IMG/VR virus record: IMGVR_UViG_2534682287_000008
Span: 1 to 38,438 of that record
DNA length: 38,438 nucleotides
Strand: one strand, 5' to 3'
Origin: a virus
Taxonomy: Duplodnaviria; Heunggongvirae; Uroviricota; Caudoviricetes
Positions 2,379-38,438 of this stretch are shown piece by piece. The notes beneath the pieces were generated by a model, which saw only the letters and a list, made by a program, of their open reading frames with translations, was not told the DNA's origin and did no database searches. The position numbers and the translations under genes were made by a program. Position 1 is the stretch's first letter. Every line of letters starts with the position of its first letter.

Positions 2379-4517
2379 TTAAAATGCCATGGGGAAGTTT
2401 GCTGTTAACGGTATAATAGAATATTCTATAGATGTCGGTGGATTTCCTGATGAATAATAATTACCCCTTGCCTGCAAAACAATTAGCCCACTAGAACCTG
2501 TATAACCAGCTCTAAATGATATTTGTTTTAAATTGTTGTCAGTTGTGTTTGGGTCTATTCTTTCGTCTATTGCTGGCTTTAGATCTTGCGCATCGTGAGC
2601 TCCAGAAGAGACAACAAATGTCTGATAGTTATTTTTAATCCCACCATTAACTTTTACCATTAAGAGATAAAGACATCTGTCCGAAGCGTATCCATTATTT
2701 ATCGCGTAATCCAATTCAATTCTTATTATACTCCCATCTTGTTGAGCTGGTATTTCCTTTCTTAAAAGATATGGGCCACGAACAGAGTTATCGTAAGAAC
2801 TTCCAATATAATTACTTCCACCAACGAATGCGGAATTCATTCTCCATATATCCTCAGCAGAAAATAGACCAGAGCTTATATAATTACCACTCCAGACATT
2901 TCTATTTCTTTCAGGTCTTGCATCTATCACCATACCATTACCACCAAAAAGACAATTTCCATTAAAAACGCTCCCAGCGAAATCAGTAGGATTGATGCAT
3001 TGCACTCTAACAGATTTGTCAACTTCACCTGTAATAATTTGAATTATGTTGTTGGATACGTTATTACCAGCACACCAATCACCACCAAATCCATTGTTAT
3101 TATTATCTAATTTTTGCCCTGAAATTCCGTTAAATGTACGTTGCTCTGAGGGGTTATCAGATCCAACATAATAAATAACATTGTTACATACATTTACCAG
3201 TGATGTTCTTAACCATATTCCAAAATCATTAAGTGGGTTTTTTTCAAAATGAAAAACGTTATTACTTATAGATGATCTTCCTCCAAGACCAACTCGTTCA
3301 CCGCCACTTATTAATAACGTCATGGCTTTTACAGAAACATTCCACATTGTGTTATTATCAATAACACATTCAAGACCTCCGGTGAACGTATCAATTTCAC
3401 ATGATGATTCTTCATTCCTATTTATGAACCTATTTCCTGTTGTTTCCCCTCCTACTGTTGTGCTTCCTATTTTATATATATCTGTATTATAACCTGATTG
3501 CATAAACACATCGAATGTATTTCCTGTTACATGGAACATTGATTTTCTTGGTGTTCCCAAATCTACAGAATCAAGCGTATCACCAAGTATTGTTAAATAT
3601 GGGAATATGCTTTCTCCTGGCTGCATATCTGAATTTGATATATATAAATCTGTATTATCATCAGTCGTACAATAGTTATTTTTAACTGAAATATGTACGC
3701 TGGTTGGGTCCTGACAGTTAACCATGATGTAGCCAACACCGCAGTTAAAGCATTGCATATCTTTTATCACCACGCGCGTTGGTAAATTCGCCAGCCCATC
3801 AGGGTAATCATTGAAAATTACCTGAGGACGCTGGGTGTGGTATGCATTTGCGGTGAACTTACCGCCGATAATCTCTACTGATTTTGCGCCAAGCGGATGG
3901 AAAATATAATCAATGCCATTGAAGGTAAATTCTCCAGTAGAAGCATCGATAATGATGTCTCCTGGGATGGTGACGGGGGCTGTTACATCGTACACACCTG
4001 ATGCTACAACTCTCGTTTTGTTTGCAACCGCATAATTTACAGCTGCCTGTAATTTTTCTGACGCATTACTTCCGGGGAATACCTCGGGGACAACCCATTT
4101 GATGGCATCCTGTACCGTGCCATATGGCATAATCCCAACAAGACCAGCGCCGTCTTGATTAGAAAGCCTAATCTCAAATTGATCAGGGGCGTACTTCAGC
4201 ACATTTGGGAATTTGAACTGCTGTGCACCATACGCATCATAAACAGCCATAGAATGGCCTTGCTCAGTTACGAATTTGGCAATCTGTCCGTTATATACCG
4301 GATATCCAGCAGCATTAATGATGATTGGTTGCGAAACAGGAACGTGAGAGCCGTCTTCGTTCTCCACATAAACCTGAATCTGGTTTTCTGGATTTACCGG
4401 ATCAGTGTCAATTTTACCGATATAAATTTTACCATTGGCTACGGCTTTAAAAGAACGAGCCATAGTGAAGAGTTGCGAAGGCATGCTTACCACAACATTT
4501 GCGGTGATATCTGACAT
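2379..4517 (-). CDS. Tailspike protein: conserved P22-type N-terminal head-binding domain, divergent C-terminal receptor-binding domain
   Basis: N-terminus MSDITANVVVSMPSQLFTMARSFKAVANGKIYIGKIDTDPVNPENQ matches P22-family tailspike head-binding domain; ATG at 4515-4517 with GGAG 8 nt upstream; ORF track's longer start is probably upstream extension. Confidence 0.85.
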   Translation of the reverse strand: MSDITANVVVSMPSQLFTMARSFKAVANGKIYIGKIDTDPVNPENQIQVYVENEDGSHVPVSQPIIINAAGYPVYNGQIAKFVTEQGHSMAVYDAYGAQQFKFPNVLKYAPDQFEIRLSNQDGAGLVGIMPYGTVQDAIKWVVPEVFPGSNASEKLQAAVNYAVANKTRVVASGVYDVTAPVTIPGDIIIDASTGEFTFNGIDYIFHPLGAKSVEIIGGKFTANAYHTQRPQVIFNDYPDGLANLPTRVVIKDMQCFNCGVGYIMVNCQDPTSVHISVKNNYCTTDDNTDLYISNSDMQPGESIFPYLTILGDTLDSVDLGTPRKSMFHVTGNTFDVFMQSGYNTDIYKIGSTTVGGETTGNRFINRNEESSCEIDTFTGGLECVIDNNTMWNVSVKAMTLLISGGERVGLGGRSSISNNVFHFEKNPLNDFGIWLRTSLVNVCNNVIYYVGSDNPSEQRTFNGISGQKLDNNNNGFGGDWCAGNNVSNNIIQIITGEVDKSVRVQCINPTDFAGSVFNGNCLFGGNGMVIDARPERNRNVWSGNYISSGLFSAEDIWRMNSAFVGGSNYIGSSYDNSVRGPYLLRKEIPAQQDGSIIRIELDYAINNGYASDRCLYLLMVKVNGGIKNNYQTFVVSSGAHDAQDLKPAIDERIDPNTTDNNLKQISFRAGYTGSSGLIVLQARGNYYSSGNPPTSIEYSIIPLTANFPMAF

Positions 4518-4638
4518 TTCATTGCTCCAAACGAATGATATGATGCAACCATGATGTAATTGCATACCGAAATGGTACTATTGAGTGTTTATCCAGTAGG
4601 CTACGATGCCATTCCACCCAACTGGTGAGGCATCAAGG

Positions 4639-4899
4639 ATGTACAGCAAATACGACGAGGCGCAGTTTCACTTGAGACTTCCGCATGAACTCCACGCGAA
4701 AATTAAGCAGCGTGCGAAGATGAATAACAGGTCGCTGAACTCAGAGATAATTGCAGCGATTGAAGAATCATTGGCTAAACAAAGCTCTGCATCTGTTTAC
4801 ATTGACGATGCAGAGCGTATGGCAGAACAACAATCTGATATGGTTAAGAAAATTGTCTTTGGTACGCTCAAGGAGCTATATAAAAAAGACAGCAGCTAA
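4639..4899 (+). CDS. mnt: Mnt-like ribbon-helix-helix repressor (immI remnant)
   Basis: C-terminus DAERMAEQQSDMVKKIVFGTLKELYKK resembles P22 Mnt tetramerisation region; N-terminal arm QFHLRLPHELHAKIK; start chosen at MYSKYDE. Confidence 0.75.
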   Translation: MYSKYDEAQFHLRLPHELHAKIKQRAKMNNRSLNSEIIAAIEESLAKQSSASVYIDDAERMAEQQSDMVKKIVFGTLKELYKKDSS

Positions 4900-4988
4900 C
4901 CATCAGTTACGGAGGATTTATGCAAAGAGATATGCTGAACATTGCGTTCTACATATTTGGTTTTTGCACGTTCCTGGTGTTTGCGAAG

Positions 4989-6986
4989 CTATTCTGACAA
5001 CGCATCAGACTTGGCACCCTGAGTAAGGGCGTTAATGGCCTTTTGCGCCTGCTGCATGGCTTTCTCAAACGCTGTTGATCCGCGTGGGGTGTTTGCCATT
5101 CGGAGCATTGCATTTCTGAATGGCTCGCTCTCATAGGCGCGAGTAAGAAGTCCGTAGCTTACTGCTGCGCCAGTTGTCGCCGGGTTCATTGCCGTCCCAT
5201 ATCCGATAATGAACGGGATGGTTTGCTGCCCTGTTGGTGTTGTTACTGCCGCTTTTGCAGCCTGTTGCGTGGATTGCAGGTAGTTTTTCAATCCTTTCAG
5301 ATAAGCAGCGTCCTGCCCCTTAAATGTGATGCCAGTCTGGTTTTGCAGGATGTTAAGCTGTCGAAGGAACTGATCAGGGGAACCACCTGATTTCTCCATC
5401 GCCTTTCCAATGATGCCATTGCGCATTTGCGCCCTGCCAACACGACCAACTGAGTTATACAGAGTCTTAATTTCCGATTTGTTCTTGCTGAATAGCATGT
5501 TGTTGACAACTTCCGGCGTCAGATCGCCTTTCATGAGAACATTCTTCAGCCTGGTATTCTTTAGTTTCGCTGCTTCGTCAGCATAGACGGCATTGGCCTG
5601 CTGATATTTACGGAGAGTATCGTTGCCAAGATTCTGACCAATGGCACCATTGATATCGTCGGTCATTGCCTTGTAAACGCGCTGAATGGCAGCATCGGAA
5701 CGGTTTGGTAACACTGGTCGCTCACCCTTCACGTCCATTCTGAACTGGCTGCGCAGGTCGCTTAATTGCTTCAAATCCAGATTTACAGGACCATCAGGGC
5801 CAGCATTGCGAATAAGCTCATCACGATAGGATTGAAGTTTTGAAATCGTCTCGTTATCAGCGACCTTACCAAGCTTCTGCAGGTTAGATATCTCAGTATC
5901 AATCTGCTGAATTGCTCGCACAGGCTGAATGTTTACTCCAGCCATAGCATTCTGAACCTGCTCCAGTCGATTACCGGCAGCACGACGAATTCCTGATGTT
6001 TTCGCTTTAAGGCTGTCAATAACAACCGCTGGATCATACTCACCGAATTTATCAGCAAATCTCTGCACCAACTGACTTCTCGCTTCCTGTTGCGTTGCTC
6101 TCATTCCGCTTGTGCCAGCCAGGGGGATATTTTCTGCTGTAGTCTGCGCCATTTTCCCGACGCGGGAAGTAGGCTGTAACAGGTCTGTGGTGTGCAGAGG
6201 AACTCCTTCACGCTCTGCAAACCTGATAGCCTGTTGAGCTTCTGGTGCTATCGAACCACGAACACCACGATAAGCAGCACCTAATCCACGTCCGGCAGCG
6301 TTAATAGCACCGCCAGCCAGCACACCAACGCCTAAATCGGTGGCGAGTGCTTCCGCATCATCTTTCGCACTGTTTGCAGCAAGTGATCCAACTGCGTTTT
6401 CTGCTAGAAGGCGAGTTGCCCCCTGAGCAATTCGACCAGCAAGTGTTGGTGCCTGTGTTGCCGCTCTCTCAACGCCAGCAGGAGTGAGGTAAGGCAATGC
6501 TTCAGCAAATACCCTTCCCTCTGTCGTTTGTGGAGTCAGCGCGCCTTGCTGAAGGCCAAAGTCCTGCTCTAATCCCTGCGTTGTTACTCGTGGCGCTGGT
6601 TGATATGTACCATCGCCAATGCCTAGTTTACCGCCAGCCCAAGCCGCCGCGCTTGTTACAGCATCGGCAACTGATGCAGGTATGTTTGCCACGTTCACGC
6701 CAGCCTGCACCAGTCCGCGACCAGTCTCTTTTACTGCTTCACCAAGATCAGACATAAATCCACTTTGCTGTGGTTGTTGCTGTGCAACTGGTTGCTGTGT
6801 CTTCACTTGCTGCACAGATGGCAATGGATAGGCAGCATAGAAAGCTTGCTTAGCCTGCTCTGCATTTTCTCCGGCTTGCGGGGCCACGACTTCATTGAAG
6901 TATTGCTCCTGAGCCTGCGCTTTTTGTTCTGGTGCTAACGCCTGATACTGTGGAGAGGCGATAACATCTTTCCATGCTTTAGCCAT
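4989..6986 (-). CDS. Ejection (injection) protein, P22 gp16-like
   Basis: 665 aa; position immediately downstream of gp20-like gene; Gln/Ala-rich; synteny with P22 7-20-16. Confidence 0.75.
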   Translation of the reverse strand: MAKAWKDVIASPQYQALAPEQKAQAQEQYFNEVVAPQAGENAEQAKQAFYAAYPLPSVQQVKTQQPVAQQQPQQSGFMSDLGEAVKETGRGLVQAGVNVANIPASVADAVTSAAAWAGGKLGIGDGTYQPAPRVTTQGLEQDFGLQQGALTPQTTEGRVFAEALPYLTPAGVERAATQAPTLAGRIAQGATRLLAENAVGSLAANSAKDDAEALATDLGVGVLAGGAINAAGRGLGAAYRGVRGSIAPEAQQAIRFAEREGVPLHTTDLLQPTSRVGKMAQTTAENIPLAGTSGMRATQQEARSQLVQRFADKFGEYDPAVVIDSLKAKTSGIRRAAGNRLEQVQNAMAGVNIQPVRAIQQIDTEISNLQKLGKVADNETISKLQSYRDELIRNAGPDGPVNLDLKQLSDLRSQFRMDVKGERPVLPNRSDAAIQRVYKAMTDDINGAIGQNLGNDTLRKYQQANAVYADEAAKLKNTRLKNVLMKGDLTPEVVNNMLFSKNKSEIKTLYNSVGRVGRAQMRNGIIGKAMEKSGGSPDQFLRQLNILQNQTGITFKGQDAAYLKGLKNYLQSTQQAAKAAVTTPTGQQTIPFIIGYGTAMNPATTGAAVSYGLLTRAYESEPFRNAMLRMANTPRGSTAFEKAMQQAQKAINALTQGAKSDALSE

Positions 6987-36734: not shown

Positions 36735-36749
36735 CTGCAGGGGACACCA
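36735..36749 (+). other. tRNA-Arg-like 3' end (CTGCAGGGGACACCA); probable attR core
   Basis: Matches recalled 3' end of argW-type tRNA; flanked by inverted repeat CCCCTGC...GCAGGGG. Confidence 0.5.
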
Positions 36750-37190: not shown

Positions 37191-38438
37191 CTATATTGCT
37201 GAAGGTACAGGCGTTTCCATAACTATTTGCTCGCGTTTTTTACTCAAGAAGAAAATGCCAAATAGCAACATCAGGCAGACAATACCCGAAATTGCGAAGA
37301 AAACTGTCTGGTAGCCTGCGTGGTCAAAGAGTATCCCAGTCGGCGTTGAAAGCAGCACAATCCCAAGCGAACTGGCAATTTGAAAACCAATCAGAAAGAT
37401 CGTCGACGACAGGCGCTTATCAAAGTTTGCCACGCTGTATTTGAAGACGGATATGACACAAAGTGGAACCTCAATGGCATGTAACAACTTCACTAATGAA
37501 ATAATCCAGGGGTTAACGAACAGCGCGCAGGAAAGGATACGCAACGCCATAATCACAACTCCGATAAGTAATGCATTTTTTGGCCCTACCCGATTCACAA
37601 AGAAAGGAATAATCGCCATGCACAGCGCTTCGAGTACCACCTGGAATGAGTTGAGATAACCATACAGGCGCGTTCCTACATCGTGTGATTCGAATAAACC
37701 TGCATAAAAGACAGGAAAAAGTTGTTGATCAAAAATGTTATAGAAAGACCACGTCCCCACAATAAATATGACGAAAACCCAGAAGTTTCGATCCTTGAAA
37801 ACTGCGATAAAATCCTCTTTTTTTACCCCTCCCGCATCTGCCGCTACGCACTGGTGATCCTTATCTTTAAAACGCATGTTGATCATCATAAATACAGCGC
37901 CAAATAGCGAGACCAACCAGAAGTTGATATGGGGACTGATACTAAAAAATATGCCGGCAAAGAACGCGCCAATAGCATAGCCAAAAGATCCCCAGGCGCG
38001 CGCTGTTCCATATTCGAAATGAAAATTTCGCGCCATTTTTTCGGTGAAGCTATCAAGCAAACCGCATCCCGCCAGATACCCCAAGCCAAAAAATAGCGCC
38101 CCCAGAATTAGACCTACAGAAAAATTGCTTTGCAGTAACGGTTCATAAACGTAAATCATAAACGGTCCGGTCAAGACCAGGATGAAACTCATACACCAGA
38201 TGAGCGGTTTCTTCAGACCGAGTTTATCCTGAACGATGCCGTAGAACATCATAAATAGAATGCTGGTAAACTGGTTGACCGAATAAAGTGTACCTAATTC
38301 CGTCCCTGTCAACCCTAGATGTCCTTTCAGCCAAATAGCGTATAACGACCACCACAGCGACCAGGAAATAAAAAAGAGAAATGAGTAACTGGATGCAAAA
38401 CGATAGTACGCATTTCTGAATGGAATATTCAGTGCCAT
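37191..38438 (-). CDS. cscB: LacY-family oligosaccharide:H+ symporter (sucrose permease CscB-like); host gene
   Basis: 415 aa, 12 predicted transmembrane segments; LacY-like N-terminus; start coincides with window end. Confidence 0.8.
   Translation of the reverse strand: MALNIPFRNAYYRFASSYSFLFFISWSLWWSLYAIWLKGHLGLTGTELGTLYSVNQFTSILFMMFYGIVQDKLGLKKPLIWCMSFILVLTGPFMIYVYEPLLQSNFSVGLILGALFFGLGYLAGCGLLDSFTEKMARNFHFEYGTARAWGSFGYAIGAFFAGIFFSISPHINFWLVSLFGAVFMMINMRFKDKDHQCVAADAGGVKKEDFIAVFKDRNFWVFVIFIVGTWSFYNIFDQQLFPVFYAGLFESHDVGTRLYGYLNSFQVVLEALCMAIIPFFVNRVGPKNALLIGVVIMALRILSCALFVNPWIISLVKLLHAIEVPLCVISVFKYSVANFDKRLSSTIFLIGFQIASSLGIVLLSTPTGILFDHAGYQTVFFAISGIVCLMLLFGIFFLSKKREQIVMETPVPSAI

Follow-up and report, generated by a model that had tools for sequence, protein, structure and literature searches.

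What does a repressor gene do in a prophage that lacks the genes the repressor is named for controlling? This question is raised by an mnt gene (4639-4899, + strand) that encodes an 86-residue ribbon-helix-helix repressor and lies between the tailspike gene and the DNA ejection gene of the virus record IMGVR_UViG_2534682287_000008 in IMG/VR. The whole stretch of DNA analysed (38,438 nucleotides, positions 1 to 38,438 of that record; hereafter the window) is a P22-like prophage of E. coli (Lederbergvirus, Sf6-type). In phage P22, the corresponding space separating gene 16 from the tailspike gene is taken up by immI, in which mnt, the control region Omnt/Pmnt/Pant/Oarc, arc, sar and ant follow one another and are accompanied by sieA and orf59a. 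The region in the window is probably the mnt-only form of this element, which is also known as the "ant moron" of P22-like phages. On this reading, operator, promoter and mnt make up a self-contained unit that arose from a complete mnt-arc-ant arrangement through the deletion of arc and ant.

A repressor gene without its partner genes

A sequence-only reading of the window had recognized a Mnt-like repressor at this position, and domain searches agree with it. The N-terminus of the protein matches the Arc ribbon-helix-helix family (Pfam PF03869, Arc/MetJ-type; 8e-15, residues 7-49) and its C-terminus the tetramerisation helix of Repressor_Mnt (PF11423; 1.2e-12, residues 57-82). Matches were likewise obtained to the structure of the N-terminal part of P22 Mnt (PDB 1MNT; 3.4e-18, residues 6-79) and to that of the tetramerisation domain (PDB 1QEY; 1.6e-7). 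The identity to P22 Mnt is 47.5%, the reading frame is intact, and a ribosome-binding site, GGTGAGG, is located at 4624-4630. By sequence, architecture and position, the protein is assigned to the Mnt family.

None of the genes that accompany mnt in P22 could be found. The start codons of mnt and the tailspike gene are separated by exactly 121 bp (4518-4638), in keeping with the earlier estimate of about 120 bp, and this gap contains no open reading frame (ORF) that could be arc or ant. On the other side, the 89 bp between the mnt stop (4899) and the stop codon of the gene 16 homologue (4989) hold only an ORF of 25 residues; as had been claimed, no sieA is present between mnt and the gp16-like gene, and none was found elsewhere in the prophage. 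When all six frames of the window were searched by tblastn with P22 Ant, Arc, SieA and orf59a, the queries matched mnt only, and the P22 Arc query returned only noise (E >= 0.7). The same six-frame search with the KilA, Rha and antirepressor proteins of relatives gave no antirepressor match, and a Pfam scan of the 45 ORFs at 18.7-37.1 kb (the early, nin and lysis regions) detected no Arc, ANT, Bro-N, KilA-N or P22_AR domain. These antirepressor searches cover known families, and an antirepressor of an unknown family would escape them. For sar RNA, no Rfam match was obtained over the whole window at the gathering score or over 4300-5300 at E up to 1.

The prophage was in effect searched throughout for the partner genes, since the span from int (1-1149, + strand; the first base of the window is the int start codon) to the attR core (36735-36749, + strand) lies almost wholly within the window, with only attL and ~160 bp upstream of int falling outside. 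Thus, the region is not a complete immI: arc, ant and sar were all tested for and not found. The role from which Mnt takes its name, the repression of Pant and the maintenance of lysogeny, cannot apply here in cis, because the prophage possesses neither ant nor arc and its equivalent of Pant has decayed.

The sequence-only reading had treated this layout as unusual. In fact, it has been published (PMC2629481, PMC8022706) and is a common state of the region. The interval from gene 16 to the tailspike gene is described as changing rapidly, sixteen genomes having yielded ten types of ant moron (PMC2629481), and mnt-only ant morons have been reported for ST64T, ST104 and Para1 (PMC2629481) as well as for phage L (PMC8022706). 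In the window, too, mnt is the sole immI gene between gene 16 and the tailspike gene. Like P22 mnt, the gene is oriented against the late operon, encodes a two-domain protein and is preceded by a homologous control region. Unlike P22, the window lacks arc, ant, sar, sieA and orf59a, its Pant has decayed, its Mnt carries another recognition beta-strand and faces another operator, and its promoter spacer measures 15 rather than 17 bp.

In the Salmonella phages L, ST64T, ST104, ST160 and SE1, mnt is located 135 bp from the tailspike start, and arc, ant and sieA are lacking (PMC2629481, PMC8022706). These L-type morons resemble that of the window in having retained a candidate operator and a Pmnt-like promoter while Pant decayed, and the published reading of them is either a new function or a remnant. 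They differ from it in their beta-strand class (DDPQFNLRLP) and its perfectly palindromic operator, in an extra leftward gene (orf62/orf64), in a different tailspike-upstream junction and in their Salmonella hosts. The layout of the window is found at 95-96% DNA identity, including the 121-bp gap, in the E. coli/Shigella Lederbergvirus members Sf101 and IME10, of which IME10 also has the 25-residue ORF. To the right of mnt, Sf101 carries another gene than the window does, and both phages carry Asp at residue 75 of Mnt where the window has Gly; neither record comments on mnt. The closest overall relative of the late region is Sf6 (~97% identical over 71% of the first 20 kb), which shares with the window the tailspike-upstream sequence, the end of gene 16 and the 25-residue ORF, but lacks the mnt cassette and is described as having no ant moron (PMC2629481). 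The window mnt is therefore of the published mnt-only kind, placed in an E. coli Sf6-type background, belonging to another specificity class and carried on an even smaller cassette. What is newly added here concerns the operator classes, the evidence for selection, a deletion intermediate and a census of lone mnt genes.

The candidate operator and the remains of the control region

Comparison with P22 immI, which the sequence-only reading had suggested, showed the 121-bp gap to be homologous to the Omnt/Pmnt/Pant/Oarc control region of P22. At the position that corresponds to P22 Omnt lies a candidate Mnt operator, the imperfect palindrome ATACCGAAATGGTAC (4564-4578), which is aligned to GGTCCACCGTGGACC of P22 and whose class has the consensus GTACCA-AAA-TGGTAC. 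The suggestion that an operator palindrome might be found in the gap was borne out in part: an exact inverted-repeat search of 4480-4700 yielded nothing useful, and the candidate emerged only once P22, L and more distant relatives had been aligned with the window. Operators of the P22 type are absent from the window at up to 3 mismatches.

Several features of the alignment single out this site. Across Escherichia, Salmonella, Buttiauxella, Serratia and Citrobacter, conservation starts exactly at the left arm of the operator, and the operator arms and the -10 box of the mnt promoter are invariant over the five genera while the flanks have diverged, the left flanks being unrelated. A Buttiauxella prophage with the Mnt class of the window carries a perfect palindrome, GTACCAAAATGGTAC, at the operator site. 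The pattern TACC-N5-GGTA occurs once in the 38-kb window, compared with 0.16 expected occurrences, and once each in the JEP4 and VSe13 loci, at the homologous place. Searches of the window and of the JEP4 and VSe13 loci turned up no further copy of the class operator, so no second target promoter is evident.

Protein and operator co-vary in three classes. In P22 and epsilon34, the beta-strand DDPHFNFRMP is paired with the operator AGGTCCACCGTGGACCT (GGTCCAC-N-GTGGACC); in L, ST160 and Gally, DDPQFNLRLP is paired with AGACCAC-N-GTGGTCT; and in the class of the window, YDEAQFHLRLP is paired with (A/G)TACC-N5-GGTAC. The half-site of the window class, ATGGTAC, differs from that of P22, GTGGACC, at 3 of 7 positions, and in the L class the operator arms do not vary, whereas all four bases occur at the centre. 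The beta-strand residues of Mnt are taken to be its predicted DNA contacts, following Knight and Sauer (1989) and Youderian et al. (1983). The co-variation of beta-strand and operator is the best computational evidence that 4564-4578 is the operator, to which Mnt would bind.

To the right of the candidate operator lies a Pmnt-like promoter (4581-4607, + strand), which consists of a -35 box TTGAGT (4581-4586), a 15-bp spacer and a -10 box TACGAT (4602-4607) and is positionally homologous to P22 Pmnt as annotated, TTGAGA-17-TATCAT. In P22, L, Gally, VSe13 and JEP4, the spacer measures 17 bp; the loss of 2 bp in the window is lineage-specific and should weaken the promoter. Of leftward Pant, only a decayed remnant is left (4586-4612, - strand; -35 ATGGCA at 4607-4612, 15 bp, -10 TAAACA at 4586-4591), to be compared with the annotated P22 Pant, TTGACA-17-TATATT, and a consensus scan of 4300-5200 returned no promoter-like site on the minus strand. 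The L class has also lost Pant (TCGGCA-17-TATATC) and has kept a perfect operator.

The edges of the cassette were defined by alignment with Sf6, Sf101 and IME10. The stretch from 4518 to 4550 is Sf6-type tailspike upstream sequence, including the ribosome-binding site of the tailspike gene, and ends at a recombination junction (...GATGCAACC) that forms the left edge of the mnt cassette (4551-4918, + strand). Since Sf6 shares 4518-4550 and is then cleanly devoid of ~4551-4918, the operator, promoter and gene behave as one cassette, which is present or absent as a unit relative to Sf6.

By homology with P22 (PMC2629481), mnt would be transcribed in the lysogen rightward, against the late operon, from the Pmnt-like promoter. 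The protein would assemble into a tetramer through its conserved C-terminal domain, and the tetramer would bind the single candidate operator (4564-4578), which immediately precedes the -35 box of mnt itself. Because arc and ant are gone and Pant has decayed, only two effects in cis would be left to Mnt, namely on its own promoter and on transcription that crosses the gene 16/tailspike junction.

The latter effect leads to the idea of Mnt as a gate for the tailspike gene. Bound 47 bp upstream of the tailspike start, Mnt, or else the convergent transcript from Pmnt, could set the amount of late-operon or stray transcription entering the tailspike gene; transcripts continuing past that gene would be antisense to the O-antigen acetylase gene and int. 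A role for the ant moron, Mnt and Arc in tailspike levels was raised by Villafane et al. (PMC2629481, citing Berget et al., 1983). In its favour, mnt and its operator are always found beside the tailspike start, in three classes and five genera, even where other antirepressor modules are present elsewhere (JEP4, MDR_56). This adjacency may equally be due to descent, however, as a deletion of arc and ant would leave mnt beside gene 9. Moreover, homing-endonuclease insertions that separate mnt from the tailspike gene by 400-900 bp are tolerated, Sf6 copes without any such cassette, and no leftward promoter is left to repress. On this evidence, a gating role appears unlikely.

Origin, distribution and selection of lone mnt cassettes

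The proposed descent of the mnt-only cassette from a complete immI draws on contig L191, which looks like an intermediate of the arc-ant deletion. At 414-743 of this contig, the operator class of the window is joined directly to a 5'-truncated P22-like ant, which is followed by the tailspike gene. The ant piece corresponds to residues 191-300, the C-terminal 110 residues, with 93% identity. If L191 is such an intermediate, lone mnt would have arisen by deletion from a full immI.

Lone mnt genes are widespread. Among the IMG/VR contigs with the window allele, none of 80 encodes Arc, Ant, SieA, KilA or Rha within 3 kb; the gap measures exactly 121 bp in 60 of these contigs. At least ~110 further contigs that match the operator-promoter pattern present the same picture, among the matches listed. 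An intact divergent arc-ant with a matching operator was found in none of ~190 viral contigs with the allele or operator class (again among the matches listed), nor in 5 phage records and 5 species-representative genomes. The L class gave the same result, with arc and ant missing from each of 80 viral contigs. In two of the three classes, mnt usually stands alone. Regarding frequency, the layout is carried by 142 of 5426 complete E. coli genomes (~2.6%), counted by coverage of at least 80% of 4400-5100. The 90%-identity protein cluster of Mnt comprises 681 member sequences, and its commonest allele is present on at least 1000 contigs. Thus, in the P22-like prophages of E. coli, this textbook repressor occurs far more often without its textbook target than with it.

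These genes have been kept intact. Between the window and VSe13 or JEP4, the DNA-binding half of mnt shows 0.12 nonsynonymous substitutions per site (dN) and 1.7-2.0 synonymous ones (dS), giving a dN/dS of 0.06-0.07, and the ratio pooled over 54 distinct mnt alleles is 0.14. The ORF is intact in 79 of 80 related viral-contig copies, the remaining copy being truncated, and one Citrobacter mnt (L101) is a pseudogene whose operator has an extra mismatch. The possibility that the window mnt is itself a pseudogene, left open in the sequence-only reading, is thereby dismissed; purifying selection as strong as this indicates that the protein serves a useful purpose.

The same data bear on the view that mnt is a functionless remnant of immI that is being lost, a reading allowed by the authors of the phage L study (PMC8022706). 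The 15-bp promoter spacer and the imperfect operator of the window lineage would suit this reading, as would the loss of the cassette in Sf6, the Citrobacter pseudogene with its additional operator mismatch and the one truncated copy among 80. It is contradicted by dN/dS values of 0.06-0.14 at near-saturated synonymous divergence and by the 79 intact copies, and it sits poorly with operator arms and a -10 box that remain invariant over genera with diverged flanks and with L-class arms that are invariant around a free centre base. Neutral decay is accordingly very improbable. The question posed for phage L, whether its mnt is a remnant or has a new function, leans to function, because lone mnt copies are under strong purifying selection and have kept their class-specific operators.

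One such function could be immunity in trans, as the sequence-only reading had proposed. A resident Mnt might repress the Pant of incoming or co-resident phages that carry ant, so that no antirepressor is made and the resident prophage is not induced. In P22, the Mnt of the prophage silences ant on superinfecting P22 (PMC2629481). Purifying selection on mnt in the absence of a cis target would be expected on this account, and the occurrence of at least three operator/protein specificity classes resembles the diversification of immunity systems. It does, however, require phages in which an intact arc-ant is combined with a matching operator, and none was encountered in the 80 contigs with the window allele, in the at least ~110 operator-pattern contigs listed or in the 5 species-representative genomes; the L class is likewise devoid of arc and ant. 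Cross-repression of a P22-type Pant is itself unlikely, given the 3 of 7 differing half-site positions. As repression by Mnt is operator-specific and no matching arc-ant phage was found, no cognate incoming target is known. Protection in trans is thus doubtful, to about the same degree as a tailspike gate. As to the other suggestion of the sequence-only reading, that Mnt might regulate something else, the operator motif has a single occurrence in the prophage, at mnt itself.

A broader proposal, which is possible and still clearly less probable than the mnt-only moron itself, is that lone mnt cassettes constitute an independently selected module of a repressor and its own operator, diversified into at least three specificity classes and serving a purpose unrelated to a resident antirepressor. 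If this were true, that purpose could be the gating of tailspike transcription, cross-immunity among P22-like phages or the control of host genes, and two classes, that of the window and that of L, would occur essentially only without arc or ant.

Several observations weigh against the interpretation of the region as a self-contained operator-promoter-mnt cassette. Firstly, the window operator is a poor palindrome with only the TACC/GGTA pair, and its left arm departs from the class consensus at 2 positions; a 4+4 palindrome is weak by itself, as 15% of shuffled 38-kb sequences contain one or more. Secondly, the 15-bp spacer of the Pmnt-like promoter is of a length that normally cripples a sigma-70 promoter, and the consensus promoter scan did not call this promoter, which fell below the threshold. 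Expression of mnt may therefore be low or may begin elsewhere, for example at CTGACA-17-AATGAT (4511-4539). Thirdly, the window Mnt carries the substitution D75G (codon 4861-4863), in which a conserved Asp of the tetramerisation helix is replaced by Gly (VFDTLK to VFGTLK). Residue 75 is Asp in P22 and in the other Mnt alleles examined, and the G75 allele, which corresponds to the exact protein of the window, was found on 44 contigs versus at least 1000 for the Asp form, so that it represents a minority change. Finally, such strong purifying selection on a repressor for which no target was found means that the explanation is incomplete.

The promoter-like site at 4511-4539 (+ strand; 9/12 matches) was the only one called by the scan. 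It overlaps the tailspike start codon, faces mnt and would put the operator at approximately +19 to +33 of the transcript. It was found in lineages with the 15-bp Pmnt spacer, in a weaker form in E1V33, and sites of this kind are no more frequent than expected by chance.

Neighbouring features and the prophage

The 25-residue ORF between mnt and gene 16 (4920-4997, + strand; MQRDMLNIAFYIFGFCTFLVFAKLF) is unannotated. Its product is hydrophobic, its ribosome-binding site, GGAGG, lies at 4911-4915, and its end overlaps the stop codon of gene 16. The ORF is intact in 35 of 35 distinct variants, among them those of Sf6, where mnt is lacking, and of Gally, VSe13 and E. coli A2. The ratio of nonsynonymous to synonymous polymorphism (pN/pS) is 0.26 in frame, while the two remaining forward frames give 1.05 and 1.94. 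Neither Pfam nor PHROG returned a match, and the exact sequence is absent from the protein collection searched. The ORF may be co-transcribed with mnt, and it also occurs without mnt; the predicted product is possibly a new small membrane protein encoded by prophages.

It could be imagined that mnt and this ORF form a two-gene unit expressed from the prophage, consisting of a regulator and a small membrane effector or resembling a toxin-antitoxin pair. The two lie on one strand only 20 bp apart, the ribosome-binding site of the ORF is strong, no terminator was found after mnt or after the ORF, and the ORF is under constraint of the coding type. In Sf6, however, the ORF is present without mnt, and in Gally, VSe13 and strain A2 it follows a lipoprotein gene. 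Its presence without mnt indicates that the ORF goes with the end of gene 16 and not with mnt. Furthermore, where small hydrophobic toxins are known, antisense RNA controls them and not a ribbon-helix-helix protein. A functional pairing of mnt with the ORF is thus the most improbable of the explanations considered.

Beyond housekeeping, the significance of the locus is small; in this respect, it draws attention to the unannotated 25-residue gene and to a misleading name. The label "partition protein ATPase" (PHROG 795; RefSeq) is a misnomer for Mnt homologues, as an 86-residue ribbon-helix-helix protein cannot be an ATPase. It has been propagated to Mnt homologues of 83-97 residues over many RefSeq phage records and PHROGs; the mnt of Sf101 (L002, 3307-3600) is among the misnamed RefSeq entries, and the copy in IME10 is unannotated. 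A 97-residue reading of Mnt from 4606, as chosen by RefSeq for Sf101, was also rejected: the extension is not conserved and is interrupted by in-frame stops in Buttiauxella and P22, and its ATG at 4606 falls within the -10 box of Pmnt.

In relatives of the window, the tailspike-mnt junction looks like a hotspot of homing-endonuclease insertion. At least three different HNH-type genes (164-179 residues) have been inserted between the tailspike start and mnt, as seen in L021, L066, L073, L082, L095, L217, L118, L143, L149, L158 and L195. In the family comprising L021, L066, L073, L082 and L095, a short duplicated remnant of the tailspike 5' end has been left on the mnt side. JEP4-type phages (L005; E. 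coli MDR_56, L015 4021-6439) have a second, separate immI-like module between mnt and gene 16. In this module, a gene for a 128-residue Arc-family protein is divergent from one for a 57-residue Arc-family protein, and P22AR/Rha and KilA antirepressor-like genes follow. The tailspike-adjacent mnt of these phages is also without a divergent arc-ant partner.

The genes bordering the region were assigned from the ORF list together with further evidence. The tailspike gene (2379-4517, - strand), which is the homologue of P22 gene 9 and Sf6 gene 14 and the last gene of the late operon, was supported by Pfam, with Head_binding matching residues 1-113 at 3.9e-64. Its true start codon is 4515-4517, from which the protein begins MSDITANVV, and the same start was called by PGAP in NZ_CP170298. 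To its left lies an O-antigen acyltransferase (acetylase) gene (1333-2340, + strand). The right border is formed by the homologue of P22 gene 16 and Sf6 gene 13, encoding a DNA ejection protein (4989-6986, - strand), for which the annotation of Sf6, Gally and HK620 under the matches was used.

The attR core at the right prophage end is a copy of the 3' end of tRNA-Arg (argW), matching that of NZ_CP170298 exactly over 15 nt, with host DNA beyond it. In a nearly identical region of E. coli BKQWHE (NZ_CP170298), int directly follows argW. The adjacency of int and the acetylase gene had brought up the idea of a circularly permuted phage genome, which is ruled out by int abutting argW and by attR at 36735-36749. 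On the 3' side of attR, within 37191-38438, lies a host gene for a permease of the major facilitator superfamily, whose start codon contains the last base of the window; the counterpart in vB_EcoP-683R2 is annotated "sucrose permease". In E. coli BKQWHE (L008, 5226-10530), a 5-kb prophage remnant at argW is followed by host emrY and retains only int, the acyltransferase gene, the tailspike gene, mnt and 210 bp of gene 16; over 4400-5100, this remnant is 99.9% identical to the window.

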